NCBI GenBank assembly: GCA_963702025.1
Contig: OY969699.1
Coordinates: forward strand, 928,001-992,000
Length of the DNA: 64,000 nucleotides
Direction of reading: 5' to 3'
Source of the DNA: an uncultured bacterium
GTDB taxonomy: Bacteria > Babelota > Babeliae > Babelales > Vermiphilaceae
Part shown: positions 1,246 to 58,067 of the stretch, piece after piece
Numbering within the stretch: position 1 is the stretch's first letter
Layout: every line of letters begins with the position of its first letter
The notes under the pieces: generated by a model
Told to the model about the DNA's origin: nothing
The model's input: the letters and a program-made list of their open reading frames with translations, nothing else
Database searches by the model: none
Program-made: the position numbers and the translations under genes

Positions 1246-1851
1246 ATGAGGTTTAGAGCATTTTTTTTATTATTTTTACCCCTCATGCTCAATGGCATGC
1301 AAAAGCCTGAAATGACTGAGCAGCAAAAAGAGGGATTAAAACGTGAAATGGATGCATTAATGGTTGCAGAATTAGACGATGAAGATTTTTTTGCAATGAA
1401 TCTACTTATTAATGAGGCCCCTGACTATTTTGCGCATGAATATACGGCGGCAAATTATTATAGAAATTCTTTACTTGCGTTAGTTGTTTATTGGCAACGT
1501 TTTGATATAGTTGCTAGATTATTAAAACTGGGCGCTGCAGTAAATAAACAAAATGCCGTAGGAATTACTCCTCTCATGTATGCGGTACAGTGGAAAGATG
1601 TTCCGATTATTAACTTGCTGTTGAAAAATGGTGCAGATGTTTCAATAAAGGATAAAGAAGGCAACACGGCACTCCATTTTGCTCGGACACCTGAGGTGGC
1701 CAAAATTCTTTTAGAAGCTGATGCGGATCCTAGCATTACCAATGCCCAGGGATTAACACCATTACAATCTATTCTTAAAAGTAAGGCGGTTAAAGCATAC
1801 CCTACATTGGCAAAAGAAATGGAAGAAGTATTTCAGAGGAAATTAATATGA
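1246..1851 (+). CDS. Ankyrin-repeat protein with signal peptide
   Basis: GITPLMYAV, GNTALHFA, GLTPL ankyrin motifs; N-terminus ends in GMQ. Confidence 0.9.
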   Translation: MRFRAFFLLFLPLMLNGMQKPEMTEQQKEGLKREMDALMVAELDDEDFFAMNLLINEAPDYFAHEYTAANYYRNSLLALVVYWQRFDIVARLLKLGAAVNKQNAVGITPLMYAVQWKDVPIINLLLKNGADVSIKDKEGNTALHFARTPEVAKILLEADADPSITNAQGLTPLQSILKSKAVKAYPTLAKEMEEVFQRKLI

Positions 1852-2495
1852 TAGATAAAAGAATTTATTTGTTGATATTTATCGTTTGTGCGCAGACAGC
1901 TAAAGGCATGGAAATGCCTCTCCAAAAATTGAAAGAAGTAACACTGAGCGAGCAGCAGAAGTTAGATTTGCGACGAGCCATGAGAGAAGCGATTGATGAT
2001 AAAGATATTCCTACCGCACTACGATTAATTGATGAACACCCTGATTATTATGTGAATCACTATTCTTCTTTTGGCCAATCGCTGTTAAATGCTGCAATCC
2101 AAAATAATTTGCCAGAAATTATACAAAAATTGATTCAAAAGGGGGTGAATGTTAATGTGCCCGATGAATTGAAGGAAATTCCTCTGGGTTTAGCTTTTTC
2201 AGCGCAAGATTTTAAGCCGATTAGCCAAATGTTGATTGATGCTGGTGCCGATATAAATATAAGATCAGGCGCCAATGAAACGTTATTATCCTTGGCAATT
2301 AGAAATGTAGAAATTTTTGGCGTCGATCGCATTGAATTTCTTTTACAAAATGGTGCCGATCCCTTATTAAAAAATGATCAAGGCGTAAATGCACTCAGTC
2401 TGATTCGCTCAGTGCAGCCTAAAAATAAACGCGATCAAATAAGAGCTCTTTTTGCAGACTACGGATTTGGTGGTGCAAAACAAAAATTGGAATAA
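1848..2495 (+). CDS. Ankyrin-repeat protein with signal peptide (paralog of 1246..1851)
   Basis: GVNVN, GADIN, GADPLLKN motifs; GME after the h-region; 4-nt overlap with the upstream gene. Confidence 0.9.
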   Translation: MIDKRIYLLIFIVCAQTAKGMEMPLQKLKEVTLSEQQKLDLRRAMREAIDDKDIPTALRLIDEHPDYYVNHYSSFGQSLLNAAIQNNLPEIIQKLIQKGVNVNVPDELKEIPLGLAFSAQDFKPISQMLIDAGADINIRSGANETLLSLAIRNVEIFGVDRIEFLLQNGADPLLKNDQGVNALSLIRSVQPKNKRDQIRALFADYGFGGAKQKLE

Positions 2496-2524
2496 TTGGT
2501 TCTTTTTAACCTTTTCATCTTTAA

Positions 2525-2995
2525 TTACGATTTTGTCGTTTCTTTTTCTTGCGCTCTTTTTAATGCGTCTAGTTGCTGTTCTTTTTCTTCTAGTTGTTTT
2601 TCCATACTCACAATTTTCTCAAGATCGATAATGAGTTTTGTGCCAGCGAGTTCCATGTCTAGAAACAGCACGCTAGTCAGTCTAGCTTTCTCATGGGATA
2701 TTTTCTTTTGTCTATCAGCTAAAGGGTTGTTGATATCATTAATATAATCTTCTGTTGATGGGTCGTTTTGAGGATATTTGTCTATTTTATCTTGCTGTAA
2801 GAGAGCGCAATGTGATTCGAGTGCTTTTAAGACATCGGGAGTATTTCCATTATGTAATCGAATGCATTCCGCAAGTCTGCCGTAACCCATATTGAATATT
2901 GTCCCTAAAAATCCTCTAAATTTTTCTTGTTCATTCTTCATGCCGACTATGGTTGAAGCGGTCAAGAGTAGGGCTATGCTGACTATTTTTTTCAT
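2525..2995 (-). CDS. Exported hypothetical protein
   Basis: MKKIVSIALLLTASTIV-GMK signal; helical C-terminus. Confidence 0.7.
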   Translation of the reverse strand: MKKIVSIALLLTASTIVGMKNEQEKFRGFLGTIFNMGYGRLAECIRLHNGNTPDVLKALESHCALLQQDKIDKYPQNDPSTEDYINDINNPLADRQKKISHEKARLTSVLFLDMELAGTKLIIDLEKIVSMEKQLEEKEQQLDALKRAQEKETTKS

Positions 2996-3018
2996 ACTAA
3001 ATCCTTTTAATTATGATT

Positions 3019-3570
3019 TTAGTTGTTTTCCAATTGTTTTAAGAATTGTTCATTTTTTTCTTTTTCTGGTCTCAACTCTGCTCTTTTTGCCAAAGATAAT
3101 GCCAGGCGCAAGGCATCCAAATTCTCTTGTAAGGTGAGGCGTGCCTCAACCACTTTGCAAAGAGTTTGCGCACGATATTTACTATTTGATGTTTGTGCAT
3201 CGTTTTTGTCATGGGGTATTGCGGCATCAGAAAGATCAATTTTTTTTGCTGTTTGTTCCATACATGCAGTAAGATATTGGTAAATATTATTGCTATTTTG
3301 GGTTGTAACTGCATATAAGTACCATTCCAATGCTCTTGAAAATAATGTGTTGAGTTCCTGAGCTTCTTTAATAATTGGTTGCATTTGCGTGGCAAAACGG
3401 GGATCTTTGCATTTATTGAGCACTTCTTGGTCAATAGGGCAAAGAATAGATTTTTCATTCAAAATATCCAGCTTTGCTGGTGGTACTCCTGCGTTTTGCT
3501 CAGCTGCTTGTTGCATGGCACCAATATTTGATGCGGCTAGAAGTACTATAATGCTTGCTATTTGTTTCAT
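3019..3570 (-). CDS. Exported hypothetical protein (probable paralog of 2525..2995)
   Basis: MKQIASIIVLLAASNIG-AMQ signal; RBS AGGAG. Confidence 0.7.
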   Translation of the reverse strand: MKQIASIIVLLAASNIGAMQQAAEQNAGVPPAKLDILNEKSILCPIDQEVLNKCKDPRFATQMQPIIKEAQELNTLFSRALEWYLYAVTTQNSNNIYQYLTACMEQTAKKIDLSDAAIPHDKNDAQTSNSKYRAQTLCKVVEARLTLQENLDALRLALSLAKRAELRPEKEKNEQFLKQLENN

Positions 3571-3598
3571 CCTAGTCTCCTTTCTTCATATCTGCCAT

Positions 3599-3895
3599 TT
3601 AATGCGGGCCCGTCATGAGAGCAACCAATACGAGTGCCGCGCTCACTAAAAGTACTGCCGCGGCTGCTTTAGCGCCTTCTTCAGAATACTCATAGTTGTA
3701 CCAATAGGGATTGAGGAGAAATGGGTTGTAATAAGGCAATAACGGTTGAGAATAGGTGGTGTAAACGGTGGTAGTAGGGTGGTAATATGGCGTATATGTC
3801 GGATATGGCTGAACATAGGTTGTGGTATACATGGCAGACATATTTGATGTGAGTACTATGCTCAACAATAAGGGTAATAAAGCTGATAATTTCAT
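3599..3895 (-). CDS. Small Tyr/Pro/Thr-rich exported protein with C-terminal hydrophobic helix
   Basis: Start moved to MKLSALL to avoid overlapping argS; YTTTYVQPYPTYTPYY low-complexity region; hydrophobic tail. Confidence 0.6.
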   Translation of the reverse strand: MKLSALLPLLLSIVLTSNMSAMYTTTYVQPYPTYTPYYHPTTTVYTTYSQPLLPYYNPFLLNPYWYNYEYSEEGAKAAAAVLLVSAALVLVALMTGPH

Positions 3896-3905
3896 GAGTA
3901 GATCC

Positions 3906-5651: not shown

Positions 5652-5740
5652 AAATTAATGACTCTTTTTTTAAATGTTTCTGCTATTATACTAAGCATTC
5701 TAGCAAGAAACTATAAAGTTGTCAGATAAGGAGATCACTA

Positions 5741-6142
5741 ATGAATTATGTGTTTTCTATTGTTATGGGCATACTGCTTTTCATGCAGTTGGGCGCCTTT
5801 GGCATGGGGCATGAAATAAAACTAGAATCAGATACAAAGGAGATCCTTGATCTCTTAAAACGGAATAAAGAATCCGATCCCAATGTAGGCATTATTTTAT
5901 GTCTGATTCTTGAGAAAGATCCCCGATTGGCTAATTGCAAAGACGATAAGGAACATACCCCTTTATGGCACGCTGTTACCAATAAAACTTTTTGGGCAAT
6001 AGATCCCTTACTTAGATACGGTGCCGAGCCCGACTATGGGGCATTTGATCGCGCTAAAAACTATTCTGTCCCCGAATGCAAGCAGCTGAAAGATGCATAT
6101 CTGGCAAAAATTAAAAAAGCTGAATCGGGAAGCAAATTGTAG
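5741..6142 (+). CDS. Small ankyrin-repeat exported protein
   Basis: HTPLWHAV...LLRYGA; signal peptide ending GMG. Confidence 0.75.
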   Translation: MNYVFSIVMGILLFMQLGAFGMGHEIKLESDTKEILDLLKRNKESDPNVGIILCLILEKDPRLANCKDDKEHTPLWHAVTNKTFWAIDPLLRYGAEPDYGAFDRAKNYSVPECKQLKDAYLAKIKKAESGSKL

Positions 6143-6189
6143 TCTTGATTAACATAAATTATCTATAAAACCTCATAACAATTAAGGAT

Positions 6190-6588
6190 ATGTCTATGAA
6201 ACGCGCAGCGGTGTTTACTGCTTTTGCAATGTCATTACTATTTTCACCATCATCTCATGGTATGGAACCAAATGAAGGTAAAGTACGATTACTATCAGTA
6301 TCTATAAGTCATTTACGAACCCTTTATGACTATGATCTTCCTCATGAATGTTTGGCAGGTTTTTTGTTAAAAGCTCGCGAGGACATCAAAAATTGTGATT
6401 CAAATGAATTTATGCAATTTCTGGCGCAACGAAATGTTGAAATTACTAAGGAACCTATAAAAGATGAATCAAAAGAAGATACCAGTGCCCAAGAAATAAA
6501 AGCTGAAGCTCCCCTGAACAGGATTTTGAACACCGTAAATCATGTGCAACCGGCTTTGCACCAATCCGGCTGTTCACCCGAAGATTGA
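6190..6588 (+). CDS. Exported hypothetical protein
   Basis: Signal peptide ending SH-GME; RBS AAGGA. Confidence 0.65.
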   Translation: MSMKRAAVFTAFAMSLLFSPSSHGMEPNEGKVRLLSVSISHLRTLYDYDLPHECLAGFLLKAREDIKNCDSNEFMQFLAQRNVEITKEPIKDESKEDTSAQEIKAEAPLNRILNTVNHVQPALHQSGCSPED

Positions 6589-7768: not shown

Positions 7769-8437
7769 ATGGAGAATTACATGAATATATTTCGGATTTG
7801 GTTAGTTCTGTTGTTCTACGCTGTTTCCTGTTTTGGCATGGAAAAGCTTGAGCCAGTAAAAAAATTATATGCCTCGGATTTTGAGAAACTTGGCGTGATG
7901 TACACAAACGAACTCATTTGTAGGGTAGATAAGCCAAAAATTAAATATATCGAATGTAATCGCCTTATGCGCCATAAATATGGGCAGCTCCTCGCGCAAA
8001 AACATGAAGCTCCTGTGTATCTCAAATATATCAATGATAGGGTGAGATACGGGGCATTTGCCGATACTGATATTGCAAAAGATAGTCTGATTGCCGAATA
8101 TACCGGCGAACTTATTCATGAGCAAATGTTTAGCCAGATTGAATCTGTGGATGATTCCGCATATTGCATGGACGTTGGACATTATTATTACGATGCGAGT
8201 TTTGACCCGGTTGTTACCGCTTTAATTGTTGACGCAAAGCGCTGCGGCAATTTTACTCGTTTTATTAATCATAGCTCTACACCAAATACTTTCCCCACCA
8301 CCATTTATGGCGGGGATAATTTGTGGCATGTTATTATTCTAGCAAACAAACGGATTGCCAAAGGCGAACAACTCACTATTGATTACGGGAATGATTATTG
8401 GCAAAACCGCGGTATCGTGCCAGAGAATTTGGAATAA
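7769..8437 (+). CDS. SET-domain lysine methyltransferase with signal peptide
   Basis: YGAFA, IAEYTGE, RFINHS, QLTIDYG..YW; SCF-GME N-terminus (start may be 7781). Confidence 0.9.
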   Translation: MENYMNIFRIWLVLLFYAVSCFGMEKLEPVKKLYASDFEKLGVMYTNELICRVDKPKIKYIECNRLMRHKYGQLLAQKHEAPVYLKYINDRVRYGAFADTDIAKDSLIAEYTGELIHEQMFSQIESVDDSAYCMDVGHYYYDASFDPVVTALIVDAKRCGNFTRFINHSSTPNTFPTTIYGGDNLWHVIILANKRIAKGEQLTIDYGNDYWQNRGIVPENLE

Positions 8438-10981: not shown

Positions 10982-12448
10982 TTAAGGTTTTGGAGAATTA
11001 ATATATATCTCATCTTTTTCATTCACCCGAATGGTAAACGGATTCCAGTTATAAGTGCCTTCGCGGCCATTTGGCTGATAGATTATATTTATTTTGCCCT
11101 CTAAATCTATTCCAATGACTCCTATTTGTTCGCGTCCAGATTTTAAAATAGTAATCAGTTCACCTTTTTTTAGCGGGACATTGAGTTTTGCCGTTTGATG
11201 CGGATTGATAACTTCTACTTTTTCTTTATTATTTTCATGAGTATATTTTATAGAAATCTGATTATTTGAATCATTTCTTATTTCGTAGAGCATGAGAGCC
11301 GGGGAAATTTTTTGGGGGCAAGACTTTTGCGGTTGTATCGGTGGTGCCACTTTTAATGGAACTGGTTGAATGGCTTGAGCTTTTGATGGAAGCTCATTTT
11401 TTAATCGAATTGCAACATCACGTAAAATAGTTCGTATGCCATCAAGATTTGTTTCAACATCTTTAAAAAAGTTAATATCCTTGATTTTTTCTTTCATTTC
11501 TTCTTTAACTTTTGCAAGAAGCGCCATCGCCACCCGAATAATGGCGAACTTCGTTGCATTATTTTTGTCTTTTTGTGCTGCTTCTTGAATTGTCCAGATA
11601 ACCATTTTAACTTTTTGACCGATTCCCAATGGTTGTAGAAAATCATCTACCGTGTTTAATCGGTTAATAGCTTCAGAAAGATCTTTTTCTGAAAAATTCA
11701 GTGTTCGTGGGGTAACCGGGTGCACCCCTAACGCAGTTAATAGGGCGATCCGTTCCTCTTCAGGGATTACTTGTGCCTCATTAATGTAATAGGCAGGTGT
11801 GTTGCCTTGGCTGTCAACAACATTTGTCTGAGCGCCATACTTCTTCTCTCTGAGTAATCTAACCGCGTTAAGAATATAGTTAATAGAAGACTTTTTTGAT
11901 TCTTTTTCTTTTAACTGTTCTATAGCTTTTGGTAATGCGGCTTTTAATTCTGCTGGTGTTTTAAAGTTTTCTTTTTCAATATCCAAGTGAATAAGCGAAT
12001 ATTGAGAATCGCGGATTAGTTCTGCCAGTGGCGTTCTTCCTTTTTCTTCTGAACTTCCTTTATTAATGTCATCGACTGCCCCTTGTTTAAGAAGGAATTC
12101 AAGTATATTTATATCACCACCGCGCACTGCATTATGTAAAATAGTAAGCCCTTGCTTATCGATACTATGAATATTGGCTCCGTTGTTGAGTAGGAACATA
12201 ATAATCTGAGGGTAATTCTCTTTGTTTTGCTTGTTTTGTTGCAAGACGGCCCATGCCAAGGGGGTTTTTCCAAATTTGTCTACTTTGTCTACTGAACGGG
12301 GATCTTGTTCTATGATCTCGATAACTCTTTGTAGATTCCCCTCAGAAGCAGCCCACCCAATATCTTGTTGTTTGGGTATCTCCATGCTGTGGCATGTCAC
12401 TAAAAACATAACAGCGATGAAAGTGAAATTTTTAATTACTTTCAACAT
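10982..12448 (-). CDS. Ankyrin-repeat exported protein with an unknown C-terminal beta-rich domain
   Basis: GKTPLAWAV, GLTILHNAV, GRTPL; TCH-SME N-terminus; AGGAG RBS before 12448. Confidence 0.85.
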   Translation of the reverse strand: MLKVIKNFTFIAVMFLVTCHSMEIPKQQDIGWAASEGNLQRVIEIIEQDPRSVDKVDKFGKTPLAWAVLQQNKQNKENYPQIIMFLLNNGANIHSIDKQGLTILHNAVRGGDINILEFLLKQGAVDDINKGSSEEKGRTPLAELIRDSQYSLIHLDIEKENFKTPAELKAALPKAIEQLKEKESKKSSINYILNAVRLLREKKYGAQTNVVDSQGNTPAYYINEAQVIPEEERIALLTALGVHPVTPRTLNFSEKDLSEAINRLNTVDDFLQPLGIGQKVKMVIWTIQEAAQKDKNNATKFAIIRVAMALLAKVKEEMKEKIKDINFFKDVETNLDGIRTILRDVAIRLKNELPSKAQAIQPVPLKVAPPIQPQKSCPQKISPALMLYEIRNDSNNQISIKYTHENNKEKVEVINPHQTAKLNVPLKKGELITILKSGREQIGVIGIDLEGKINIIYQPNGREGTYNWNPFTIRVNEKDEIYINSPKP

Positions 12449-18867: not shown

Positions 18868-19491
18868 ATGAACGAAGAAAATAATAATCAGCAAGAACAA
18901 AACCAAGATCAAGAATCCAACCTTGCCCAACAATTGCAAGAATGTCAGGCGCAAAGAGATGAATGGCGGGATCGTTTTTTACGGGTTGCGGCAGAATTTG
19001 AAAACTATAAAAAACGGGCAGAAAAAGAGAAGGTCCAGTGGATAACGGGGGCCCAAGCATCGTTACTTTCTGATCTGATAACCATTGTTGATGATTTTGA
19101 TCGCGCATTTGCTCCCAGCCTACGCTTATCCGGGTCTTCCGACTCGGCAACCCTTCGGCAAGCTCAGGAGTTAACGCGCCCTTCCGCTCATCCTGAGGAG
19201 CAGCGCAGCTGCGTCTCGAAGGACGGCGGGCAGGCAACCCAATCAAATGAATTTGTTGATCAGTCACGGGCCGGATTTGAATTAATTTACAAAGCATTGC
19301 AAAAATTGCTTGAAAAATATGGTGTCACCCAGATGAAAATGGGCGAACATTTTGATCCAATGCTCCATGAAGCGATCATGCAAGTGGAGGATGCCACAAA
19401 ATCCTCGGGTGATATTGCACAGGTTTTGCAAAAAGGGTATATGTTTAAAGGTGAAGTACTCAGACCGGCAAAGGTAAGTGTGGTGAAATGA
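18868..19491 (+). CDS. grpE: Nucleotide exchange factor GrpE with an about 35-40-aa repeat-derived insertion
   Basis: AEFENYKKR, DDFDRA, FDPMLHEA, QKGY...LRPAKVSV. Confidence 0.95.
   Translation: MNEENNNQQEQNQDQESNLAQQLQECQAQRDEWRDRFLRVAAEFENYKKRAEKEKVQWITGAQASLLSDLITIVDDFDRAFAPSLRLSGSSDSATLRQAQELTRPSAHPEEQRSCVSKDGGQATQSNEFVDQSRAGFELIYKALQKLLEKYGVTQMKMGEHFDPMLHEAIMQVEDATKSSGDIAQVLQKGYMFKGEVLRPAKVSVVK
19151..19223. repeat. Palindromic repeat pair inserted in frame in grpE
   Basis: cccttcggcaagctcagga (minus-orientation unit) and ccgctcatcctgaggagcagcgcagctgcgtctcgaagga (plus-orientation unit). Confidence 0.85.
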
Positions 19492-20369
19492 AAAAGTTTG
19501 TTTTCATTCCTTTAATTTTTACAGTCTCCCTATCATTTGGTATGGAGAAATCGAGTGAAAAACAAAGAGAATGCGAACAAATATGCTATCTAAATAGAAT
19601 TCCAACGGATATAATCCTTGAAATTTTAATGTGCTTATTTTCATGTGATGATGTGCCACTGATAAAAAATCTTCATGAAGCAACAGTTCTGGTAAAGCCA
19701 TTTTTATATAGCGCCAAGAAATATTTTACAAATGATATGTTGCATAAACAGCTTGTAAAAAGAATGTCCAAAATATATAAGACCCTTACTGCTGAGATTT
19801 CCTTGGATCTTCCTACCCCAGCCAGTAAAGAATATTTAAAAAGCATCGGGATAGATGATGTAATAAAATATTGTGGATACAATATTATAAAAAATGGTTT
19901 TCCTGCGCAGATACGGATGTTGCTTGATGTATGGCCGGTCGGATGCGCAATCCAGATTACTCCTTTTAAAAATTCGATAAAGCGCAATTTAATAATAGAA
20001 CTTGCTGAAACTGATATAGAGGCTCAGCGCTTAAGGCTTTTGCTTTCAAAGGGTATTGATGTAAATGTTATTTCCAATTATGCATCCGGAGATAATGCTT
20101 TGCACAAAGTTGTGCGTACTGCTACTAAAGAAAATGAAGCGTTAAAAAGAAAGCAACTAAAAGTTTTACTTGATTATGGCATCAACGTTGATCATGAAAA
20201 TAATAATTACAATCGTACGGTATTCGACTTGGCTAGGGTTCTTGCTGAGCCAGGGAACCCATTCAAGGAATGCCATTCTCTCCGTTCTGATTTAGAACGG
20301 GCCAAAAGGGATCGAGAGATGGAAAAAAGAGTTGAATCGCATGTGAATAAATGGAATCACTTAAAATAA
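19488..20369 (+). CDS. Exported F-box-like plus ankyrin protein
   Basis: SF-GME; YLNRIPTDIILEILMCL; GIDVN, GDNALHKVV. Confidence 0.75.
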   Translation: MKKFVFIPLIFTVSLSFGMEKSSEKQRECEQICYLNRIPTDIILEILMCLFSCDDVPLIKNLHEATVLVKPFLYSAKKYFTNDMLHKQLVKRMSKIYKTLTAEISLDLPTPASKEYLKSIGIDDVIKYCGYNIIKNGFPAQIRMLLDVWPVGCAIQITPFKNSIKRNLIIELAETDIEAQRLRLLLSKGIDVNVISNYASGDNALHKVVRTATKENEALKRKQLKVLLDYGINVDHENNNYNRTVFDLARVLAEPGNPFKECHSLRSDLERAKRDREMEKRVESHVNKWNHLK

Positions 20370-20517: not shown

Positions 20518-21513
20518 ATGAAAAAAGTACTTATTTGTTTAAGTTTCTTTTCATCAATTTCTGCCATGCAAAATGCTACTCACCATGCTTCTGATTGTTT
20601 TGACCTGCTTCCTTCCGATATTATTGCTTTAATTTTGGAGAAGCTTATTACTCCTTTTAATCTAAAAGTATGTGGCGAGGGGCCACAGGAATTTATAACT
20701 ATACCTGGCTGGCAATCGAGCGGCGCACGAGAATTTTTGAAAATTCGAAAAAAGTATTATGGAAGTGTGCAAATTCCCAAAACACTTTTTGCTGCATTGG
20801 AGAGTGACCATTCTTCGTTTGGCAAGAAACTCGGTTTATCTGTTTGTCTAGCAAGTCGTGGCTCCATGGTATGGCTGAAGCAAGAACTTGAAAAAAAAGA
20901 TATGACTGATCACGCATACAACTTTATCAAATTTTCCTGTGCTCAGAAGAACCCATTGCCGGTTGCCCCATTTTCCACTTCACGAGTGAAATTGTTATTG
21001 AAGGCGGGATTTCCTATCAACTCATATTGCAATGATGAGGGTGTTCCCTTGCTCATTGAGGCATTGCAACAATTGCCAAAAGATCATAGCGATATTTATA
21101 AACTGGCAAGTGATAAAATAAATCTTTCATATATTCAAAGAATTGCCTGGATCACTTTATTGGTTGCCTATGGTGCTGATCCCAATATCTGCACCCGGCA
21201 TGGCACATCTGCACTCCTTTGTCTTGTTCAAGATAGAAACTCATCATTTGATTGGAGCCCGAAAAGTGCCATAAAAATGCTGTTAGAATTAGGGGCCAAG
21301 CCCGTAACAAAGGGTCAGCTTATCAAAGGTAAAACGGAAGATGATAGCACAGTGCGCGATGAACAGGCCTATACGAATGCGATTGAAGACGCTGCTTATT
21401 TAGCCGACCTTTGCGAGCAATTTGCAAAAAAAAATGAACAACAAAATGCAATCGCCAAGGAGCTTGCAAATAAGAAGTCGCCCTTGAGTAAAATTTGGCA
21501 AAAACAGCCCTAA
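20518..21513 (+). CDS. Exported F-box-like plus ankyrin protein
   Basis: IS-AMQ; FDLLPSDIIALILEKL; LLVAYGADPN, LLELGA. Confidence 0.75.
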   Translation: MKKVLICLSFFSSISAMQNATHHASDCFDLLPSDIIALILEKLITPFNLKVCGEGPQEFITIPGWQSSGAREFLKIRKKYYGSVQIPKTLFAALESDHSSFGKKLGLSVCLASRGSMVWLKQELEKKDMTDHAYNFIKFSCAQKNPLPVAPFSTSRVKLLLKAGFPINSYCNDEGVPLLIEALQQLPKDHSDIYKLASDKINLSYIQRIAWITLLVAYGADPNICTRHGTSALLCLVQDRNSSFDWSPKSAIKMLLELGAKPVTKGQLIKGKTEDDSTVRDEQAYTNAIEDAAYLADLCEQFAKKNEQQNAIAKELANKKSPLSKIWQKQP

Positions 21514-28138: not shown

Positions 28139-29182
28139 ATGATGAAATATTTTTTCTGTATGACTGTCATCTTTTCATTGTGCGGAATGGAAATGCCGCA
28201 AGAAAAAAAAGGTGAGCAGGATATCGCCAAAAAGTTGCTCAAGGAAAAAGAAGTATCAAAACAACTAAAAGAAGAAATGGGTGATAAAGAAGAAAAGCGT
28301 GCGCGGCGTGATTTAATAGCGTTTCAAAAATTTCATCCACAACGAACTGTTTCAGTTAAAGAAATTAAAAAAAAATTCCCGCAGCTTTTTACTGGTATAC
28401 CTGAAAGCATGTATCAACATGTTGCTGATTATGTTGAATTTAAGTTTGGTAAAGCCATAGAGAAGCAGCTACAAGGGCTTAAAAATATTAAGAAAAGCAA
28501 AGCGATTGCCAAAGATCCGGATATTTCTTTACGTACTTTCTTGTGGCAAGCGATCGGCATAAATTATGGTCTTCTTGCCTATTACTTAACTTGCCAAAGT
28601 TATTTCCATTTTCTTGATCCCGGTGAAAAAAAATTCTTTAAAGGTCATCGCATTCATCATCATATAGAAGATGTTGCCGTTTTTGACCAAAAAGGAGAGC
28701 AACAAACTGCGCCGCGCAAAGAGATGGCCGAGAAATTGGTGCAAAAATATAAAATTCATCTGATGCCCAAAGCAGAGGATATGACGCCAATCATAATTCA
28801 ATTGTTAGAGAGTGTAAAAAATGATCTGGAGCTGGCTCAGTTAATACACTCATTTAAAGCGCGCCCGGATCCCAACACTCTCTTGCAAGGGCGTATTGTT
28901 TCTCGGATTGTTATCTACCCTGCCTCGGGTAAAGAGAATGCCCAAAAGCTTCTTGATAAACTGTATTCTCTGTTAAAAAATGTTGAAGGATCCGGACAAC
29001 ACCCATTTGCCAATGCACGCGTCTCCGATCTTATCTGGATTGCTCACGGTGATAGCGGTGATAAGCCTTTTTTTCGTCACTATTACGAACAGCCGAATAT
29101 GGTTTATTTTCGCCCTGATATGACCGGCACTATAGAAAATTATCATTTGATTAACCCCGAAACGAGAAAAGAAATTGTGTAA
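28139..29182 (+). CDS. Exported protein, tandem family member 2
   Basis: LC-GME; YKIHLMP, SFKA, RIVIYP, LIWIAHGD. Confidence 0.7.
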   Translation: MMKYFFCMTVIFSLCGMEMPQEKKGEQDIAKKLLKEKEVSKQLKEEMGDKEEKRARRDLIAFQKFHPQRTVSVKEIKKKFPQLFTGIPESMYQHVADYVEFKFGKAIEKQLQGLKNIKKSKAIAKDPDISLRTFLWQAIGINYGLLAYYLTCQSYFHFLDPGEKKFFKGHRIHHHIEDVAVFDQKGEQQTAPRKEMAEKLVQKYKIHLMPKAEDMTPIIIQLLESVKNDLELAQLIHSFKARPDPNTLLQGRIVSRIVIYPASGKENAQKLLDKLYSLLKNVEGSGQHPFANARVSDLIWIAHGDSGDKPFFRHYYEQPNMVYFRPDMTGTIENYHLINPETRKEIV

Positions 29183-29195: not shown

Positions 29196-30350
29196 ATGAA
29201 ATTCTCTTTTTATCTATTCATTATTATCTCTCCAATGCTTACAACCGCTATGGAGATGCCAGAGCAAAAGAAAAAACAAGTTCTCACGCAGTTAGAAAAA
29301 AATAAAATCGCTGCGCTGAAAGAATATGAACATTTTAAAAAAACGGGGGCCGAGCTTTTGCATACCCCCGATTATCTACGAAATAATGCCCCAAACTTAT
29401 TTGAATTCGTGCCCGCCGAACTGTGGTCAGCCATTGCGAGCCTTGCAGATTATCAGTATGGTGAATTGGCGCCGCAAGAATTAAAAAATCTTAGCACGCG
29501 ACGTAACCGTGCCGAATATGTGCCGTTCCGGTGGACGGCGCTGGGCTATCATTTTAACGTGATCCCCTATCATTCAAATAATGGGTATTTTCATTTTGAT
29601 AAAAATCAATCAAATCAAAGCATACTCAAAGGAATTCGCGATAAGGATGCATCACTGGGAAAATATCTTCAGTTACTTGATTCCTACGGAAAATTAATGC
29701 GTGACAAAGAGCAAACCGATGATGAGATGACGATTTTTGAACATGAGCTGGCTGCTGCCAAAAAATCAAAGGAAAATATTGAAGGGCCCTATATTCAAGA
29801 GCTTCAAGAAAATGTGAAAAATAGCAAAAGCATCGCAAGATATCTGGGCGGTCAGCTGCAATTAACACAAGAAAATTTAAAAAAACAGTTGGACCAGCTA
29901 ACGACTCAATACACTATTAATCTAATGCCCTATGATCGTGATCTCACGCCAATTATCATAAAATTACTGCGCGCTTTAAAAGATGATGCAGAACTGCAAG
30001 GCTTGATCAATTCATTTAAGGTAATGATAGACGGTGACTATAACAAACCGGAATTGCTGAATCCGCGCGTTGTTATTTACCCGGCACAAGGAAAGGAAAA
30101 TACCCAAAAAGCGCTCAATAAGCTTGCAACCATTTTTGCCAATACAAAAGGGCTTCCGAACAGAAAGTTGCTTTACCATGCAAAAGTGAATGATTTAATT
30201 TGGATAGCGCAGGGTGATAGCAGATATAAAGGGAACGAATATGCGATATATTATGAGCATCCCAATCGCGTCTATTATCATCCAAATACCACCGGAACGC
30301 TCCACGATTATCACCTAAAATTCCCCGGAACGGACAAGGATATTATCTGA
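29196..30350 (+). CDS. Exported protein, tandem family member 3
   Basis: TT-AME; YTINLMP, SFKV, RVVIYP, LIWIAQGD. Confidence 0.7.
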   Translation: MKFSFYLFIIISPMLTTAMEMPEQKKKQVLTQLEKNKIAALKEYEHFKKTGAELLHTPDYLRNNAPNLFEFVPAELWSAIASLADYQYGELAPQELKNLSTRRNRAEYVPFRWTALGYHFNVIPYHSNNGYFHFDKNQSNQSILKGIRDKDASLGKYLQLLDSYGKLMRDKEQTDDEMTIFEHELAAAKKSKENIEGPYIQELQENVKNSKSIARYLGGQLQLTQENLKKQLDQLTTQYTINLMPYDRDLTPIIIKLLRALKDDAELQGLINSFKVMIDGDYNKPELLNPRVVIYPAQGKENTQKALNKLATIFANTKGLPNRKLLYHAKVNDLIWIAQGDSRYKGNEYAIYYEHPNRVYYHPNTTGTLHDYHLKFPGTDKDII

Positions 30351-30891: not shown

Positions 30892-30908
30892 AATTTCCTG
30901 TAGATTTT

Positions 30909-31439
30909 TTAAGCAATAGTGAGATTATCGAATAATATTTGGCGAATTTTTAAAGCATTATTATATTTGGTTTCTATAGATTTTTTTCGCTCTGTGTACT
31001 CATTTATTAGTCTTCTTATGCCATCAGTTATCAAGGAAATAGCGGATATAACAAGAGTTAAAGCAACTTTGTTATAAAATGGTATTTTTTCGCTATTTTT
31101 TTCCAATTCAATTGTTTTAATGGTGAATACTAATGCGTATAGGCTTGCAACTCCACCGCAAAGTTCAAGACCCGGCACAATCGATTCATTTTTTTCTTCT
31201 GAGTACAATTCGCTTGCCATAGGGATTTCAAAGTAATTCCGCCGACGGCTCGCAACCTCTTTGCTCAAATCCAAATATTTTAATTGCTCATTAGGGGTAA
31301 AAGGAACTGCGTACGTTCGTTTTCTATTTTCAAGCTCAGTAGTGAATGCATCCAAGTTGCTCTCTAAAATAGCTTTTTCAATAAGATCCGTTGCGAAGGT
31401 ATTGGTGATTAAGGATAATGTAAAAAATAATTTTTTCAT
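30909..31439 (-). CDS. Exported two-TM hypothetical protein (tandem duplicate B)
   Basis: N- and C-termini nearly identical to 30343..30891. Confidence 0.75.
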   Translation of the reverse strand: MKKLFFTLSLITNTFATDLIEKAILESNLDAFTTELENRKRTYAVPFTPNEQLKYLDLSKEVASRRRNYFEIPMASELYSEEKNESIVPGLELCGGVASLYALVFTIKTIELEKNSEKIPFYNKVALTLVISAISLITDGIRRLINEYTERKKSIETKYNNALKIRQILFDNLTIA

Positions 31440-31445: not shown

Positions 31446-32594
31446 CTATTTATGTGATGTTCTTAATTCTCGTAATTCTTGAAAATTTTTCTTTTGCAGC
31501 TCAAGAAGTTGAGTATTTGAATGTTTAATAATACTTCGTTGAATAAAATAGAATAATAATTTTAGTCCAAAGAGGCCGACCATTCCTAATAATGGAAAAT
31601 ATACTTCGTATTTCTTTAAGTAGTCTTTAAAAATTTTTGCATTTTCACGTTTTAATTTACAGGCATGATCATTGAGTGATTCATTTAATGCTTCTTCGAC
31701 ATCATTTTTAGTAATAGGAGTGTGATCTCTATTTTTGCAAAAAGCGTTAATTGCGGCCCCGCCAATCAGTCTGTTTAGTTCGTGAAAGGAGAATCCTTGA
31801 GTTTTTTTTGTTAGGGTTTCTAAAGATTTCTTTTCAAGAGCAACAAATTTTTCTTCAAATAAGTTTAATCGTAAGGCAGTTGATGGCAAGTTGATTAAAA
31901 ATCCTTCTCCGAAACGATCAAAAATGGCATCTGGGATTCTTCCCGGTTGATTCGTGGTTGCCAGAATAACTGTAGAAGTATTATCAGCACACATTTTGAG
32001 TTGGTGCCAAAAGAGGTGTTCAGCCCTGGGATTATTTATAATCTCTGAAAAAAAACTAATATCATCAAGTATCAAAGTTCTTTTTTCAGATGAATTTAGA
32101 AATGGATCAAATAATGCATCTAAACGAGTTTGCATAGAAGAAGGATATTCGCTCCAAAGATCAGTGCCAACAACAAATACGAAAGGGCGCTTCAAATAAT
32201 AAGCTAATGCCTTTGCAAGAGTAGTTTTCCCGTTCCCCGTAGGGCCTTTTAGCAATATTGTATTTCCCTGTGTGTCAGGTCTTGCTTTTATGAGATTAAT
32301 TTCTTCAATGAGCCTTTCTGGTAAAGTCTTGAGTGTTATTTCTATACTTCTTTCACTTACTTCATTTAGTGCGTCTTGGTATGGCTGTAGTTCAAAAAAT
32401 GGGGTATGGCGAATATTATCTAACTCAAGTTTTCGTACCCGCAGCTGATTTTCAAGTTGATTTATTTTTTGAACTAAATCAGTGTTAAGTTCAGTTTCAT
32501 GTTCTTCATTATGTAGGATCTCCATAGGCAAAGCGATTTGAGTGCTGAGAAATAAACAAGAAAGTACGAAAAGAAGATTGGAACGTCTTTGCAT
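31446..32594 (-). CDS. Classic-clade AAA+ ATPase with signal peptide and C-terminal TM helix
   Basis: GPTGNGKT (Walker A), LILDDI (Walker B), ATTN...DAIFDRF; AGGAG RBS before ATG 32594. Confidence 0.8.
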   Translation of the reverse strand: MQRRSNLLFVLSCLFLSTQIALPMEILHNEEHETELNTDLVQKINQLENQLRVRKLELDNIRHTPFFELQPYQDALNEVSERSIEITLKTLPERLIEEINLIKARPDTQGNTILLKGPTGNGKTTLAKALAYYLKRPFVFVVGTDLWSEYPSSMQTRLDALFDPFLNSSEKRTLILDDISFFSEIINNPRAEHLFWHQLKMCADNTSTVILATTNQPGRIPDAIFDRFGEGFLINLPSTALRLNLFEEKFVALEKKSLETLTKKTQGFSFHELNRLIGGAAINAFCKNRDHTPITKNDVEEALNESLNDHACKLKRENAKIFKDYLKKYEVYFPLLGMVGLFGLKLLFYFIQRSIIKHSNTQLLELQKKNFQELRELRTSHK

Positions 32595-43344: not shown

Positions 43345-44220
43345 ATGAAAAACAGTAAAATAGCGCTTATACTAATGGCTTTTGTCTTCTATAGTTGCCC
43401 TGCTATGGAACTGCCCAATGAAGGACAGGCATCATTAGGAGCAATGCCTGCGGACATAAAAAATCTTATTTTGTATGAACTTATTGAGGTGGACCCTTCT
43501 TTAAAGCCAGATGATCTTACCGATTTTTATAAATCGATTAAGAATATTACCAATTATGCCCGATTGAACAGTGAATTTAAAGCTTTAGTTAATGATCCTC
43601 GCAACATGATTTGGTTGGTAAAAACCTTAGTTGAGCGATTTAAGGATAAATCTCCCAAAAGTGTTGATGAGCTTTTTATCGCAAAGGGCTTAGCAAATAT
43701 GCCGGGAATTAAAAGTATAGAATTTCAGAATTGGCTTCAAAACCTTATTAAAGAAAAAGAATTAAGATTAGCTGCGGAGGATCTTAATGTAGAAAAAGTA
43801 AAAAAGTTACTTGCTGAGGGCATTGATGCAAATGCTTCAGATAGATTATTTAACATGCGACCGCTGAATTATCTTGTGTGGGGCCTAGCTTTTAAAGGTG
43901 GGAATGAGCAGAACACGGCTGAAGCCATTACAATTTTAAAACTATTAATGGCTGCAGGGGCAAACATTAATGTACAGGCTGGTAATGGATACACACCAAT
44001 ATTACTGGCAACAATATACCAAAATATACCGCTCATGCAGGCAATTCTAGAATATCATCCTGATCTTAGTTTGGCCGATAGTGGGGGAGGGACTCCCTTT
44101 CACTTTGCAGTAGCTGCCGGTGATAGTGCAATTATGAAAGTTTTATCTGACTATGTACAAAAAAATCAAATTGCCGTGAGCCCGGAAATTCAAGAGCTGA
44201 TGCAAAGTAGAATTCAATAA
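43345..44220 (+). CDS. Exported F-box-like plus ankyrin protein
   Basis: SCP-AME; LGAMPADIKNLIL; GYTPILLA, GGTPFHFAV. Confidence 0.8.
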   Translation: MKNSKIALILMAFVFYSCPAMELPNEGQASLGAMPADIKNLILYELIEVDPSLKPDDLTDFYKSIKNITNYARLNSEFKALVNDPRNMIWLVKTLVERFKDKSPKSVDELFIAKGLANMPGIKSIEFQNWLQNLIKEKELRLAAEDLNVEKVKKLLAEGIDANASDRLFNMRPLNYLVWGLAFKGGNEQNTAEAITILKLLMAAGANINVQAGNGYTPILLATIYQNIPLMQAILEYHPDLSLADSGGGTPFHFAVAAGDSAIMKVLSDYVQKNQIAVSPEIQELMQSRIQ

Positions 44221-44454: not shown

Positions 44455-44823
44455 CTACTCAACGACTACCGTTATTTTTCTTTTGTCAGCGGGCTTAATA
44501 TTTTCCCATGGTCGTTTATATTCAAGCGTAAATTGTTGGGTTCCCGGTTTGAGCCCTTTAATCACCCATTTTTGTTCGCCACCAGCACCTATTAGTTTTG
44601 AATCTGATGCTTTATAGACCGGATCGCTGATTTTAATAATATCAGTCTTTAGTGGTTCAGCTAACTGCCAGGAATAGCCGGTTGTAGGATTTGATTTTAA
44701 CTTCAATGTATGTTTACCGCCTTTTTTGATGACGATTATTTCATCTTTTGGTGCGGCCGGTTTCTCCATTCCATAGAGTGTGGATATTAGTGAAGCAGTT
44801 ACAAAAAGTAGACTAACTCGCAT
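44455..44823 (-). CDS. Chagasin-family (I42) cysteine protease inhibitor, exported
   Basis: SNPTTGYSW, GAGG, YKRPWE loops; LY-GME N-terminus. Confidence 0.9.
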   Translation of the reverse strand: MRVSLLFVTASLISTLYGMEKPAAPKDEIIVIKKGGKHTLKLKSNPTTGYSWQLAEPLKTDIIKISDPVYKASDSKLIGAGGEQKWVIKGLKPGTQQFTLEYKRPWENIKPADKRKITVVVE

Positions 44824-44894
44824 TATCATCTCCTTTGTATGATTCTTAATTTTTTTAAGCATAGCATTTGTTATCAAGTCAACGCGATATTTTG

Positions 44895-46517
44895 CTAGAA
44901 GCCGCACCCTGTCTTAATCCAAACGCCCCATTGGGAAATTGAGTTTTTATTTGCTTTAATTTCATGGCGTGGATTTAAGCCCTCAAATTCCACTTCGCCA
45001 CCGATGCCAATAAACGGATCAACATACGGAAAGCAATCGATCCATGCATAACTAATATTGCCAAAAACTTTATGCGTAAAACTATGCGGTGTGGCGGCTG
45101 AATTTTCATCTATTTGATAATCCTCAAAATAAACGGGCGGATTGGGATCGGCAACTACTGCTTGTTGTGAAAATTGATTGCCAAAAATAGTTGCGGTGCT
45201 TTGCGTTGCATTACTTAATGACGGGCCAAGATTGGTAACATTTTGAATACCTTTGAGCGCATAGGTTTTAAAGGGGATTTTTTCTCTATTGCTGATCATT
45301 TCTCGAGAGCGGAACCAGACGTTGTATCCTAAATCTGCCGTGAGATTAGGATCTTCATAGCTTGCCATAATAACCGCGTCTATTTGAATGGCAAAAGAGG
45401 TATCACAATAGAGAGTAGTAATATCAATGACAGGCAGGCAGTTGCCGGTATAAGTATTAGTGTTTCCGTCAAATTGCTTTGCCAAAATATAACGCGTGCC
45501 AGAACCTTTATAGAAAATATTTTCCGGGTCAATAGGATTTCTGAGATCAAATGAGCGGCGTTGGCGCGCATTAAAAATATGAGTAACATTAACATCACTA
45601 AAAAATGATATGCGTTGATCGCCATCTTTTTCCCAGAGGACCACGTGCCCGGTGAAGCCGATTCCTAATTCTGGGTGATTGCCATTGCCTATTATTGGTT
45701 CAAATAGGTAGATGGCCTCCGATGGGGTGCCGCCCGGAATGGAACCACGAATATTAAAACCCGCATGCCCGTAATCATTATTGGCAAAGTTCCAGCCGAC
45801 AGCAACTTGCGCTTCAGTGAATCCCGATTTTGATTGTGGGCCTTCAATGCGTCCAAATTCCAAGCCGCGCGTTACTTGGCCCCAGGTTATGCCACCGGCA
45901 ATAGCATCCGTAAACGATGTGGCCGGTGCAGGAATAGATGCGGCGGCCATGTAACGGGCCGGATATGAACCGGTCGCGGAATTGGGTGCAATTGTTTCTA
46001 AAAGTTTAAAAACCCATTTTGTCCACACATATGGCACATGGAAGCGAATGTAGTAATCTTCATAGCCAAAATAGCCTTCAAAATCTACCAGCCCGGTGCG
46101 AATTTCTGGTTCCATGCGCACCGTGCTTTGGAATGTGGTGGCAAGGCCAAAATAATCGGCAAGGATTTGTGTTTGATTATCGCGGTTTGTCACTTGGCTA
46201 CCGGTAATTACCAATTCGTCATCAGCAAAATAATATTCGGCAAGGCGAGCAGGTCTAAAAGAGTGTTTATATTCCGGGACGAGACTAAAAGCACCGTACA
46301 TTTCTTTGCATGGCTGATTAATAAATCGGTGCCAGCCGGACAATTCTCGCGCAGCATTTACCGCTTCGGATCGCGGGGCAAGAAATGTTTTGCCGTGCAA
46401 TGGTTGATTAAGATCATCATCATTCATGGCGCATATGCCAAGAGTATAGAAAAATAATAATGCGGTTACTAAGCTCAAATATTCTATTCTATTCCCGTGA
46501 CGCATACTCATCCTCAA
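44895..46517 (-). CDS. Putative outer-membrane beta-barrel protein, paralog 3
   Basis: LADYFGL, FEPIIGNG, DLGYN, terminal WGVWIKTGCGF. Confidence 0.75.
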   Translation of the reverse strand: MRMSMRHGNRIEYLSLVTALLFFYTLGICAMNDDDLNQPLHGKTFLAPRSEAVNAARELSGWHRFINQPCKEMYGAFSLVPEYKHSFRPARLAEYYFADDELVITGSQVTNRDNQTQILADYFGLATTFQSTVRMEPEIRTGLVDFEGYFGYEDYYIRFHVPYVWTKWVFKLLETIAPNSATGSYPARYMAAASIPAPATSFTDAIAGGITWGQVTRGLEFGRIEGPQSKSGFTEAQVAVGWNFANNDYGHAGFNIRGSIPGGTPSEAIYLFEPIIGNGNHPELGIGFTGHVVLWEKDGDQRISFFSDVNVTHIFNARQRRSFDLRNPIDPENIFYKGSGTRYILAKQFDGNTNTYTGNCLPVIDITTLYCDTSFAIQIDAVIMASYEDPNLTADLGYNVWFRSREMISNREKIPFKTYALKGIQNVTNLGPSLSNATQSTATIFGNQFSQQAVVADPNPPVYFEDYQIDENSAATPHSFTHKVFGNISYAWIDCFPYVDPFIGIGGEVEFEGLNPRHEIKANKNSISQWGVWIKTGCGF

Positions 46518-46612
46518 ATGATTTAAAATGCTGTTTTAATTAATGGTAAATGTACTGAGTATCATACCAGATGATGGCGATGAAATGAATAAGGGATTGT
46601 TAGCCGTACTAT

Positions 46613-54702: not shown

Positions 54703-54900
54703 AATATCCTTAGTAAAGAATTAATTAATTTAATGTATACTCATTTAGTAATAGGATGGTCAAGTAAAAACAGGTTACACTGAGCACGCTGAAATTACTT
54801 GACAAATGTGCAAAAAAGAGACATTTTTTCTGCATTACAATACAATGTTACTGTTTTAGAAATTATTAAATTCATCAAGCAAAAAACGGAGAAAAAATCG

Positions 54901-56286: not shown

Positions 56287-56289
56287 AAT

Positions 56290-57216
56290 ATGGTAAAAAA
56301 TAGTTCGTCGTTAAAAAAATTAAAACCGGTTACCGCACATAAACCAGTTCTTGTGCAAGAAGTTCTTGATAATCTTGTAATCAAGCCGCACGGCCTCTAT
56401 CTGGATGTTACCTTTGGCTCGGGCGGACACACGCGTGCCATTTTGGAAAAAGAGCCGACATGTCAGGTGATTGCCATGGATTGGGATGCTCTTGCACTTG
56501 AAACATTTGGCCATCCCCTGCAAGAAGAATTTGCTGATCGGCTCACGCTGTTGTGGGGGAACTTTTCAAATCTGTATAAATTACTTAAAAAATATGACAT
56601 TCAAGAAGTTGATGGCATTTTAGCAGATTTTGGCACGTCCCAAATACAGATTGCACAAACTCCGGGTATTTCCCTTTTTCGTGATACACCGCTTGATATG
56701 CGATTGTCATCAGCGCATCAACAAGTAACTGCCGCTGATGTGCTCAATAGATCTTCCCAGGAAAAATTGGCGCAGCTTTTTTTTCAGTTGGGAGAAGAGC
56801 CCAAAAGTAGGCAGATTGCGCGTGCGATCGTTGCTGCGCGAAGCAAAAAATCATTTACTACCACGGGCCAGCTCGTTGATGTTATTGAATCCGTGATTCC
56901 CAACAAAGGCAAGAGGGGCATACATCCGGCAACCAAAGTTTTCCAAGCATTGCGCATTTATGTTAACCATGAGCTTGAAAATATTCAGGCTTTTTTGCCC
57001 GCGGCGGTTACCGCGTTAAAAACCGGCGGCCGTTTGGCATGCATTAGCTTTCATTCATTAGAAGATCGTATGGTAAAACAGTTTTTTAAGGATCAAGAAT
57101 TGGCGCACACGCTCGAGATTGTTACCGGTCGGGCACTTGTGGCAACCGATGAAGAACTTATGCAAAATCCGTCTGCTCGTTCGGCCAAACTGAGGGTTGC
57201 GCAAAAGCTAAAATAG
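56290..57216 (+). CDS. rsmH: 16S rRNA m4C1402 methyltransferase
   Basis: HKPVL, TFGSGGH, PLDMR, FQALRIYVN, ISFHSLEDR, RSAKLR. Confidence 0.97.
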   Translation: MVKNSSSLKKLKPVTAHKPVLVQEVLDNLVIKPHGLYLDVTFGSGGHTRAILEKEPTCQVIAMDWDALALETFGHPLQEEFADRLTLLWGNFSNLYKLLKKYDIQEVDGILADFGTSQIQIAQTPGISLFRDTPLDMRLSSAHQQVTAADVLNRSSQEKLAQLFFQLGEEPKSRQIARAIVAARSKKSFTTTGQLVDVIESVIPNKGKRGIHPATKVFQALRIYVNHELENIQAFLPAAVTALKTGGRLACISFHSLEDRMVKQFFKDQELAHTLEIVTGRALVATDEELMQNPSARSAKLRVAQKLK

Positions 57217-57227
57217 ATAGGATACCT

Positions 57228-58067
57228 ATGATAAAATACTATCTCTTGAGTTTTTTCTCATTCACCACAATGATTGCCATGGAAACGGCGCCGACAGAGG
57301 ATCATTGGACTTTTTACGAATCAAGCCTTAATGCTGCCCAGCAGGTTAAGATTGTTGTGCCTAGAACAATAGTCGACGTTGGATGCGGGTGGGGCAGTAT
57401 TACGGCGCGTGTTGCAAGGGAAGATTCCGAATGCGAGGTGATTGGCATTGACAGTCACCATTTTGCTATCAGTAAGGCAATCGAGAAATATGGTGATCAG
57501 CCAAATCTTACCTATATTTGTACCGATCCGAAAGATTTGGCACTCTCATTTCACAAAAAAGTAGATTTGGTTCTTTGTAATTCAATGCTGCATTGGTTCT
57601 CTTATCCGGATCAAAAAAAGATGCTCAAACAGATGGCGCAGATACTCAAAAAAGGGGGGAACGCGCAAATTAGTATGGATGGCAACTATACCATCGAATA
57701 CCAAAGATACTTTAGTAGATTGTGGCCTGCTATTGCGAAAAAACATCGTATCGATCCGTTTGAGCAGCAGGTGTTTCCGCGTACAGTGGACTCATTTAGA
57801 ATCCTTGCCCATCTGGCTGGATTTACCGTGAAATCTCTTGAAATAAAGGATATTTGTAAAACCTTTGAGGGGGAAGGCGCCTTTAAAAATTGGGTTCGCA
57901 AAGGGGTGGTTCTAATACCGATTATTTCTACCATAACCGATAGAAAAAAAAGAATAAGCATCGTTGAAGAAATTGTAGATGAATTCACCCTGTATGCGAT
58001 TAAGGCTGATCGGGGTAAAATTGAGTATGAATACTCAATTTTATTGGCTTGGCTAGAAAAAAGGTAG
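57228..58067 (+). CDS. Class I SAM-dependent methyltransferase (Tam-like) with signal peptide
   Basis: VDVGCGWG, IGID, CNSMLHW, LKKGG; MI-AME N-terminus. Confidence 0.8.
   Translation: MIKYYLLSFFSFTTMIAMETAPTEDHWTFYESSLNAAQQVKIVVPRTIVDVGCGWGSITARVAREDSECEVIGIDSHHFAISKAIEKYGDQPNLTYICTDPKDLALSFHKKVDLVLCNSMLHWFSYPDQKKMLKQMAQILKKGGNAQISMDGNYTIEYQRYFSRLWPAIAKKHRIDPFEQQVFPRTVDSFRILAHLAGFTVKSLEIKDICKTFEGEGAFKNWVRKGVVLIPIISTITDRKKRISIVEEIVDEFTLYAIKADRGKIEYEYSILLAWLEKR

Follow-up and report, generated by a model that had tools for sequence, protein, structure and literature searches.

A Met-Glu motif at predicted signal peptidase cut sites of host-type proteins in a Babelota genome

Why should so many secreted proteins of one bacterium begin, once the signal peptide is removed, with the same two residues? 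The question is raised by a stretch of 64,000 nucleotides (below, the window; contig OY969699.1, positions 928,001 to 992,000) from an uncultured member of the Babelota, where 18 genes encode proteins with a methionine (Met), mostly followed by glutamate (Glu), directly after a predicted signal peptide. Babelota are a phylum strictly intracellular in protists (PMC12172432; here and below, papers are cited for particular passages). The bacterium likely parasitises single-celled eukaryotes. Members of the phylum secrete hundreds of eukaryote-like proteins without a recognised injection system. All 18 motifs listed in a preliminary description of the window are present in the translations: 11 ME, three MQ, one MN, and one each of MK, MY and MG. 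In 16 of the 18 proteins a cleavage model blind to these residues places the predicted cut directly before the Met; the cut falls one residue too early in gene 28139 and two too early in gene 31446 (genes are designated by their lowest coordinate in the window).

The genome from which the window comes (G000) is a single contig of 1,596,033 bases with 39% GC, in which 1,532 genes were called with a dicodon model. Signal peptides were scored by a heuristic of our own, not by SignalP, from a basic n-region, a hydrophobic h-region and weights for positions -3 and -1; the heuristic contains no scoring term for residues +1 and +2. About 40% of the G000 genes score as secreted under it. As predicted cut sites may be off by a few residues, counts are strict (Met exactly at +1) unless flagged as relaxed.

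At a score of at least 9, Met occupies +1 in 235 of 652 predicted signal-peptide proteins, compared to a background of 1.85% (binomial p about 1e-227), and the enrichment expected from the window is thus confirmed. The count is 248 of 702 at score 8, and 331 of 776 when relaxed. The tag is therefore genome-wide and real, and is carried by 16-22% of G000 genes, about a fifth. It can be seen without any cleavage model: ME occurs at residues 14-34 of 175 out of 636 signal-peptide-like proteins, where 11 are expected. The residue at -1 of these ME-anchored sites is A, G, S, P, C or T in 170 of 175 cases and that at -3 is mostly L, A, S, I, V, T or C, as at sites of the signal peptidase I type. The 235 tagged proteins form 130 families by BLAST linkage, and 78 of the 130 family representatives have Glu at +2. 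In a positive control, two Bacteroidota records, the model predicted 17 signal peptides, 7 of them with glutamine (Gln) and none with Met at +1, several of the others being lipoproteins; in a negative control, stretches of mostly free-living bacteria, Met was at +1 in 0 of 49.

The strongest mechanistic clue is the spectrum of residues at +2. Among 248 strict tags there are 147 E, 25 Q, 16 D, 12 H, 9 N, 9 K and no P. Position +3 is usually K or L, Lys being the commonest, and Pro stands at +4 in 82 of the 248, so that the consensus reads M-E-K/L-P. Glu at +2 is found in 59% of cases after Met and in at most 10% of other G000 signal-peptide proteins. E, D, N or Q together account for 197 of the 248 (79%), against 19.7% after internal Met; small residues, after which an aminopeptidase can remove Met, account for 21 of 248 against 38.4%, and hydrophobic residues for 7 of 248 against 25.7%. 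Met with Asp, Glu, Asn or Gln after it is the substrate class of the eukaryotic N-terminal acetyltransferase NatB (PMC11735805), and the fit to this class proposed in the preliminary description holds. The tag shares with NatB substrates the two-residue class and the depletion of small and Met-hydrophobic starts; it differs in that its Met would be uncovered post-translationally by a bacterial peptidase and is not an initiator Met on a host ribosome.

Could the tag Met simply be a start codon? The preliminary description had allowed for an internal start giving a cytoplasmic isoform; the Met might also be the true start of a gene with a spurious upstream extension. One public record agrees with this, as P0002, a homolog 73% identical to the methyltransferase of gene 57228 and the only relative found by the homolog search, is recorded with its start at the tag ME. 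However, none of the 235 tag ATGs has a Shine-Dalgarno motif in front of it, whereas 66% of the first ATGs do, the Shine-Dalgarno pairing energy is -5.7 kcal/mol at first ATGs and -1.3 kcal/mol at tag ATGs, and the previous stop codon is overlapped by 15 first ATGs and no tag ATG. Window genes 1848, where the overlapping first ATG has a Shine-Dalgarno motif, and 19488 are examples of such overlaps. The genes thus have a single upstream start, the internal-start alternative is refuted at the level of sequence, and either version of this explanation is extremely improbable. The recorded start of P0002 suggests that gene callers drop such signal peptides: a gene started at the tag Met loses its leader.

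Another possibility is that the Met has no function of its own, and is either the old start codon of a gene that gained its signal peptide upstream or a part of an N-terminal module spread by recombination. Indeed, family f4 contributes 16 homologs of the SET-domain protein, none with a predicted signal peptide (only ATG starts considered), and several of them begin near the tag position. However, Glu is second in just 6 of 224 non-secreted proteins with Shine-Dalgarno starts, compared to 147 of 248 tags, and no remnant of a Shine-Dalgarno box is seen 5' of the tag. The tag is thus unlike a relic bacterial start, and such a relic as the sole cause was rejected. An origin of either kind would be consistent with the clustering of tagged genes, which adjoin one another more than expected (0.65 versus 0.51), and with the tag status differing in 18 of 129 paralog pairs, in some of them through model error. 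On the other hand, only six weak DNA pairs were found among the leaders of the 130 family representatives, and tagged leaders are no more alike than others (mean alignment score 9.8 among tagged, 9.3 among untagged and 9.5 across). The codons of the tag are near the genome usage. A shared leader cassette or DNA motif is thus unsupported and, since the leaders show no special likeness, the codons are ordinary and the DNA pairs few, the tag is kept or re-made at the level of protein. A functionless relic or module therefore seems rather improbable.

The tag is not spread evenly over protein classes. The genome has 652 signal-peptide proteins; 382 of them lie in the stretches analysed, and 300 of these were scanned against Pfam (E 1e-6). 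The strict Met tag was found in 32 of 51 proteins with ankyrin, WD40, leucine-rich repeat or RING domains, in 1 of 13 envelope proteins (amidase, binding proteins, OmpH, OmpA, M23, PBP1, NamZ, M48, M15, DUF885, BamD), in 3 of 45 other Pfam-matched proteins, and in 78 of 191 proteins without a Pfam match. The difference between the host-type proteins and the pooled envelope and other matched proteins has p=4e-10, paralogs not being independent. BamA and both secretins of G000 are untagged as well. The tag thus associates with host-type domains and is scarce on envelope proteins, in line with the preliminary description. A census with a local ankyrin profile yielded 117 ankyrin proteins in G000, of which 107 score as signal-peptide proteins; 69 are tagged by the strict and 89 by the relaxed count. 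The C-terminal residue, cysteine content and basic clusters differ little between classes.

This distribution bears on the possibility that Met-Glu is an optimum on the bacterial side, helping signal peptidase I to cut or the protein to pass through Sec, or keeping aminopeptidases of the periplasm or phagosome off the N-terminus. Sec passage is favoured by acidic residues near the start of the mature protein, and Pro at +4 could block tripeptidyl peptidases. There is also a precedent in the Q-rule of Bacteroidetes, which stabilises extracytoplasmic proteins (PMC10653852), and tagged proteins unlikely to act in the host cytosol, namely chagasins and a paralog of barrel proteins (see below), would be explained. 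However, the envelope proteins are cut by the same peptidase and are untagged but for 1 of 13, Lys is the commonest residue at +3, so positive charge is not avoided, and the preference for Glu at +2 is specific to proteins with Met at +1. Such an optimum is improbable as the cause of the tag. In the Q-rule itself, Gln at +1 after signal peptidase I is cyclised to pyroglutamate (PMC5837995, PMC10653852). In both systems a residue peculiar to the lineage is fixed where signal peptidase I cuts, probably to protect the N-terminus; here, however, the tag is Met-Glu, occurs on a host-type subset, is patchy, and has no modifying enzyme implicated (no search for one was made). Gln is at +1 in only 42 of the 652 G000 signal peptides, compared to 235 for Met, not in most substrates.

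The best explanation, which we hold tentatively and at slightly less than even confidence, is that the cut by signal peptidase I uncovers an N-terminus of the NatB class, free of degrons, which has been selected in the host cytosol. The proteins would be exported by Sec and cut, as predicted, before the tag Met; they would then leave the cell through a type II-like system or in vesicles, and arrive in the host cytosol. G000, which is 95% complete, has one match to PF10502 (signal peptidase I), two to PF00263 (secretin) and two strong ones to PF00437 (type II ATPase), and no match to PF03135 (VirB4) or PF00771 (FlhA/SctV). As secretins and ATPases are present and the VirB4 and FlhA/SctV families are unmatched, there is no known injection route. 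This agrees with passages of earlier papers in which no route but type II secretion or Sec is named and most ankyrin proteins are reported to have signal peptides (PMC4378268, PMC4776705, PMC6561590); putative vesicles were also shown (PMC6561590).

Signal peptidases are among the makers of Arg/N-degron termini, and N-degrons include residues that are basic, hydrophobic, acidic or amide, small residues if unacetylated, and unacetylated Met-hydrophobic termini (PMC11735805). Hence products of signal peptidase would normally expose residues read by eukaryotic N-degron ligases. With an acidic or amide residue next to it, Met would escape trimming by methionine aminopeptidase, would not be a Met-hydrophobic degron, and would belong to the NatB class. 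Since Sec delivery loses the initiator Met, a second Met followed by Glu would rebuild a host-like start, which might survive in the protist host, perhaps acetylated, like that of a newly made host protein.

Alternatively, M-E-x-P may serve the mature protein as an address, recognised by a bacterial receptor (for type II secretion or for loading into vesicles) or by a hitherto undescribed translocon that moves proteins through the membrane of the host vacuole. This explains the length of the four-residue consensus, it agrees with the sorting of the tag with host-type cargo and with a genome in which secretins and type II ATPases are present (two of each) and VirB4, FlhA and SctV have no match, and tagged chagasins fit leaving the cell better than survival in the cytosol. 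Acidic residues after the cut carry sorting information in the +2 rule of lipoproteins and in the lipoprotein export signal of Bacteroidetes, although these involve a lipidated Cys and signal peptidase II, whereas the Met studied here follows a type I site. The closest analogy is PEXEL of Plasmodium, whose consensus has RxL before the cut and Glu, Gln or Asp in the second position. E, Q or D is second in 188 of the 248 tags; however, Leu is at -1 in 1 of 175 ME-anchored sites, and Arg is not among the ten commonest residues at -3. Both are found in intracellular parasites whose host-directed proteins acquire a defined new N-terminus by proteolysis, which for the tag is predicted, and in Plasmodium an N-terminus made by signal peptidase suffices for export (PMC10653839). 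Unlike PEXEL, the tag is bacterial, lacks RxL and plasmepsin V, has +1 fixed as Met, and has no known translocon.

The comparison with relatives weighs on the address. Stretches of 40 kb from 19 relatives yield 268 predicted signal peptides, of which 30 have Met at +1, none of these from families f4, f6, f7, f11 and f14. On the DNA level, the pattern MK...[A/G]ME matches G000 69 times, compared to six times for the swapped order. At least 15 matches occur in 25 of 120 relatives, a count given without a statistical test, as kin are not independent: 14 of 44 in f1, 7 of 7 in f2, 3 of 15 in f8 and 1 of 5 in f7. None of the genomes of the other 12 families reaches this level, including 0 of 11 in f4, 0 of 11 in f5 and 0 of 7 in f10, and the swapped pattern never exceeds eight matches in any of the 120. 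The spread of the tag is thus patchy. Sampled genomes of f4, f7, f11 and f14 have ankyrin proteins with signal peptides and without the tag (such untagged ankyrins are seen in G069, G047, G057, G019 and G096), and thus an obligatory signal common to the phylum was rejected for the genomes sampled. Nor do all homologs of tagged proteins have the tag: both G000 copies of the chagasin-type inhibitor are tagged, whereas 0 of 23 homologs in relatives are, and homologs within the same genus are untagged while the neighbouring genes are tagged. GNAT, SIR2 and RING proteins, whose substrates are cytosolic, are often untagged. The preliminary description's reading of the motif as an export signal is therefore weakened in so far as the signal was taken to be obligatory. 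The low-count families and the untagged chagasins argue against an address, as does the recurrence of the tag in Alphaproteobacteria described below, which would need a second receptor of the same taste; no receptor candidate was identified. We consider an address somewhat unlikely, though host stability and an address can both hold.

A few features of relatives are added here. Region G041:C1:1389000-1432000 is a tandem run of dozens of ankyrin genes, and the leaders in G041 often end in x-P-A/M, not in Met-Glu. Signal peptidase I has a single match in G000 but two to four in many Babelota genomes, often side by side and with open frames of 290-470 amino acids (L003-L032). The records L172, L177 and L179, titled 'uncultured Pseudomonadota', carry Babelota-type genes, with several Met-tagged proteins in L172, and their labels may be wrong.

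The Alphaproteobacteria offer a comparison outside the phylum. Among 401 genomes (two of them unpublished and counted in the tally only), about 50 have a strong match to the ATP/ADP translocase. One of these translocase-bearing genomes, G147, has the highest pattern count of all 401, with 26 matches. By eye, 13 of the 26 are in-frame signal peptides ending in A/G-M-E, on many contigs, compared to 0 of 12 for the swapped pattern. Raw pattern counts alone are misleading: the five next-highest genomes lack the translocase and have 16-24 matches each, of which only 1 of 92 is a signal peptide with ME (by eye). A tagged gene of G147, with M-D, lies on the same contig as a translocase of the alphaproteobacterial type, and thus mis-binned Babelota DNA is, judging by this contig, disfavoured. 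G300 and G315 have four and three in-frame cases, respectively (by eye). A general Met tag of translocase-bearing Alphaproteobacteria was rejected, as Met is at +1 in 5 of 152 predicted signal peptides in 40 stretches and G147 alone is strong. These bacteria have serine (Ser) at +1 in 31 of 152 cases, where a control without AT matching gave 3 of 49 (p=0.03), and within the Babelota Ser is at +1 in 11 of 22 cases in f14. Lineages low in Met thus show Ser, the NatA class, and possibly the Ser version is a second, NatA-type form of the rule. A filter on the host side best explains both the recurrence in G147, which is of an unrelated lineage of the intracellular type, and the Ser at +1 in other lineages. 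In L050, L069 (G069) and L215-L254, Ser at +1 often occurs as Ser-Glu, Ser-Asp or Ser-Ser. A search of plasmids with an ankyrin protein gave no useful endosymbiont loci.

Several observations weigh against selection in the host cytosol. NatB acts co-translationally and shields only a subset of proteins (PMC11735805). The consensus, which continues to K/L at +3 and Pro at +4, is longer than degron avoidance needs. SET homologs in f5 mostly begin with Lys, a destabilising residue, and the Ser signal was obtained against a control (3/49, p=0.03) without an AT-rich free-living match. The chagasin of gene 44455 and its G000 copy are tagged though expected in a lumen, and tagged protein 44895 belongs to a probable barrel family. 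Conversely, only 4 of 14 members of a family including GNATs start with Met (4 of the 10 shown), and G000 encodes untagged SIR2, RING and DNA ligase proteins with signal peptides. The tagged chagasins and probable barrel and the untagged GNAT, SIR2 and RING proteins count against an address as well. Finally, the cut sites are heuristic predictions, and secretion, localisation in the host and acetylation are proposals made from the sequences.

A stronger version would combine the two readings: two bacterial phyla of protist parasites would have independently evolved a counterpart of the Plasmodium export code, in which the Met-Glu N-terminus is both acetylated by the host and the address for an undescribed step moving hundreds of Sec-exported effectors to the host cytosol without type III, IV or VI secretion. 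This analogy we regard as unlikely. If the tag is indeed driven by the host, the bacterium would be tuning its signal peptidase products to eukaryotic N-terminal quality control, in convergence with malaria parasites. A sequence rule covering about a fifth of the genes also offers an easy way to predict host-directed proteins, among them the 78 scanned ones that match no Pfam family.

The tag is apparently undescribed. No description of Met or Met-Glu directly after bacterial signal peptides was found in the literature, where the Babelota papers were covered in part, without the supplements that hold signal-peptide tables, and most subscription papers lay outside the search. Babela massiliensis and Chromulinavorax destructans have the same effector classes (ankyrin and ubiquitin-system proteins), an equally high share of signal peptides, and type II secretion or Sec as the sole route (PMC4378268, PMC6561590); the passages cited are silent on any motif behind the signal peptide, and the word 'methionine' is missing from the main text of PMC4378268.

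In the window, domains were assigned with Pfam and cuts with the cleavage model, and better starts were chosen at 3895, 7781, 12448, 32594, 44823-44829 and 46505. The preliminary description ascribed the tag to proteins of unrelated folds. This is true in part: the tag elsewhere spans unrelated families, whereas four of the window proteins have ankyrin repeats, namely 1246..1851 (forward strand, G/MQ, tag ATG 1297), 1848..2495 (forward, G/ME, 1908), 10982..12448 (reverse, S/ME, 12385) and 43345..44220 (forward, A/ME, 43405), and a fifth, 19488..20369 (forward, G/ME, 19542), matches weakly. Among the domains named there, Pfam confirms the SET domain in 7781..8437 (forward, G/ME, tag ATG 7838), the AAA ATPase in 31446..32594 (reverse, P/ME, 32525) and the S-adenosylmethionine (SAM) methyltransferase in 57228..58067 (forward, A/ME, 57279). 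The F-box has no Pfam match even at E up to 5; genes 19488, 43345 and 20518..21513 (forward, A/MQ, 20566; no Pfam match) have only the F-box-like pattern LP.[DE][ILV]...I. Seven further tagged genes have no Pfam match: 2525..2995 (reverse, G/MK, tag ATG 2941), 3019..3570 (reverse, A/MQ, 3516), 3599..3895 (reverse, A/MY, 3832), 5741..6142 (forward, G/MG, 5804), 6190..6588 (forward, G/ME, 6262), 28139..29182 (forward, G/ME, 28187) and, with none above the cut-off, 29196..30350 (forward, A/ME, 29250).

The label 'effector-like' does not suit all 18. Gene 44455..44829 (reverse, G/MEKP, tag ATG 44769) encodes a protease inhibitor of the chagasin family (I42). The product of 44895..46505 (reverse, A/MN, tag ATG 46427) ends in Phe and is probably not an effector, as it is a paralog, with 35% identity, of the probable outer-membrane barrel protein 46613. 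The family ends in an aromatic residue, and its likeness to barrels is at the level of a candidate. Three paralogous signal-peptide proteins of 540-630 amino acids with a PRSQ-like start and an aromatic C-terminus are encoded at 44895-50355 and 17286-18575. This trio and a fourth barrel-like gene have no Pfam match, and similar genes recur at other Babelota loci; the paralogs are candidate lineage-specific outer-membrane channels, judging by their sequences.

Several enzymes that normally reside in the cytoplasm are predicted to have signal peptides or anchors: nucleoside diphosphate kinase, HIT, AhpC, ATP-dependent DNA ligase and UDP-glucose dehydrogenase (loci L076:1-522, L090:11749-12198, L094:4781-5446, L094:7918-8940 and L077:18218-19600), as well as many GNATs. 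The window also encodes, at 30343-31439, two near-identical tandem secreted proteins that start with TDLIEKAI, are untagged and have no Pfam match. The region 58397-62451 is the edge of an integrated element, with a serine recombinase followed by an AAA_25 protein. The recombinase frame crosses a tRNA-Gln (58475-58549) and continues into the next gene. Its relatives, with 81%, 67%, 61% and 59% identity, are in records of Candidatus Babeliales, Dependentiae and TM6, and one of them adjoins a gene of the same barrel-like family.

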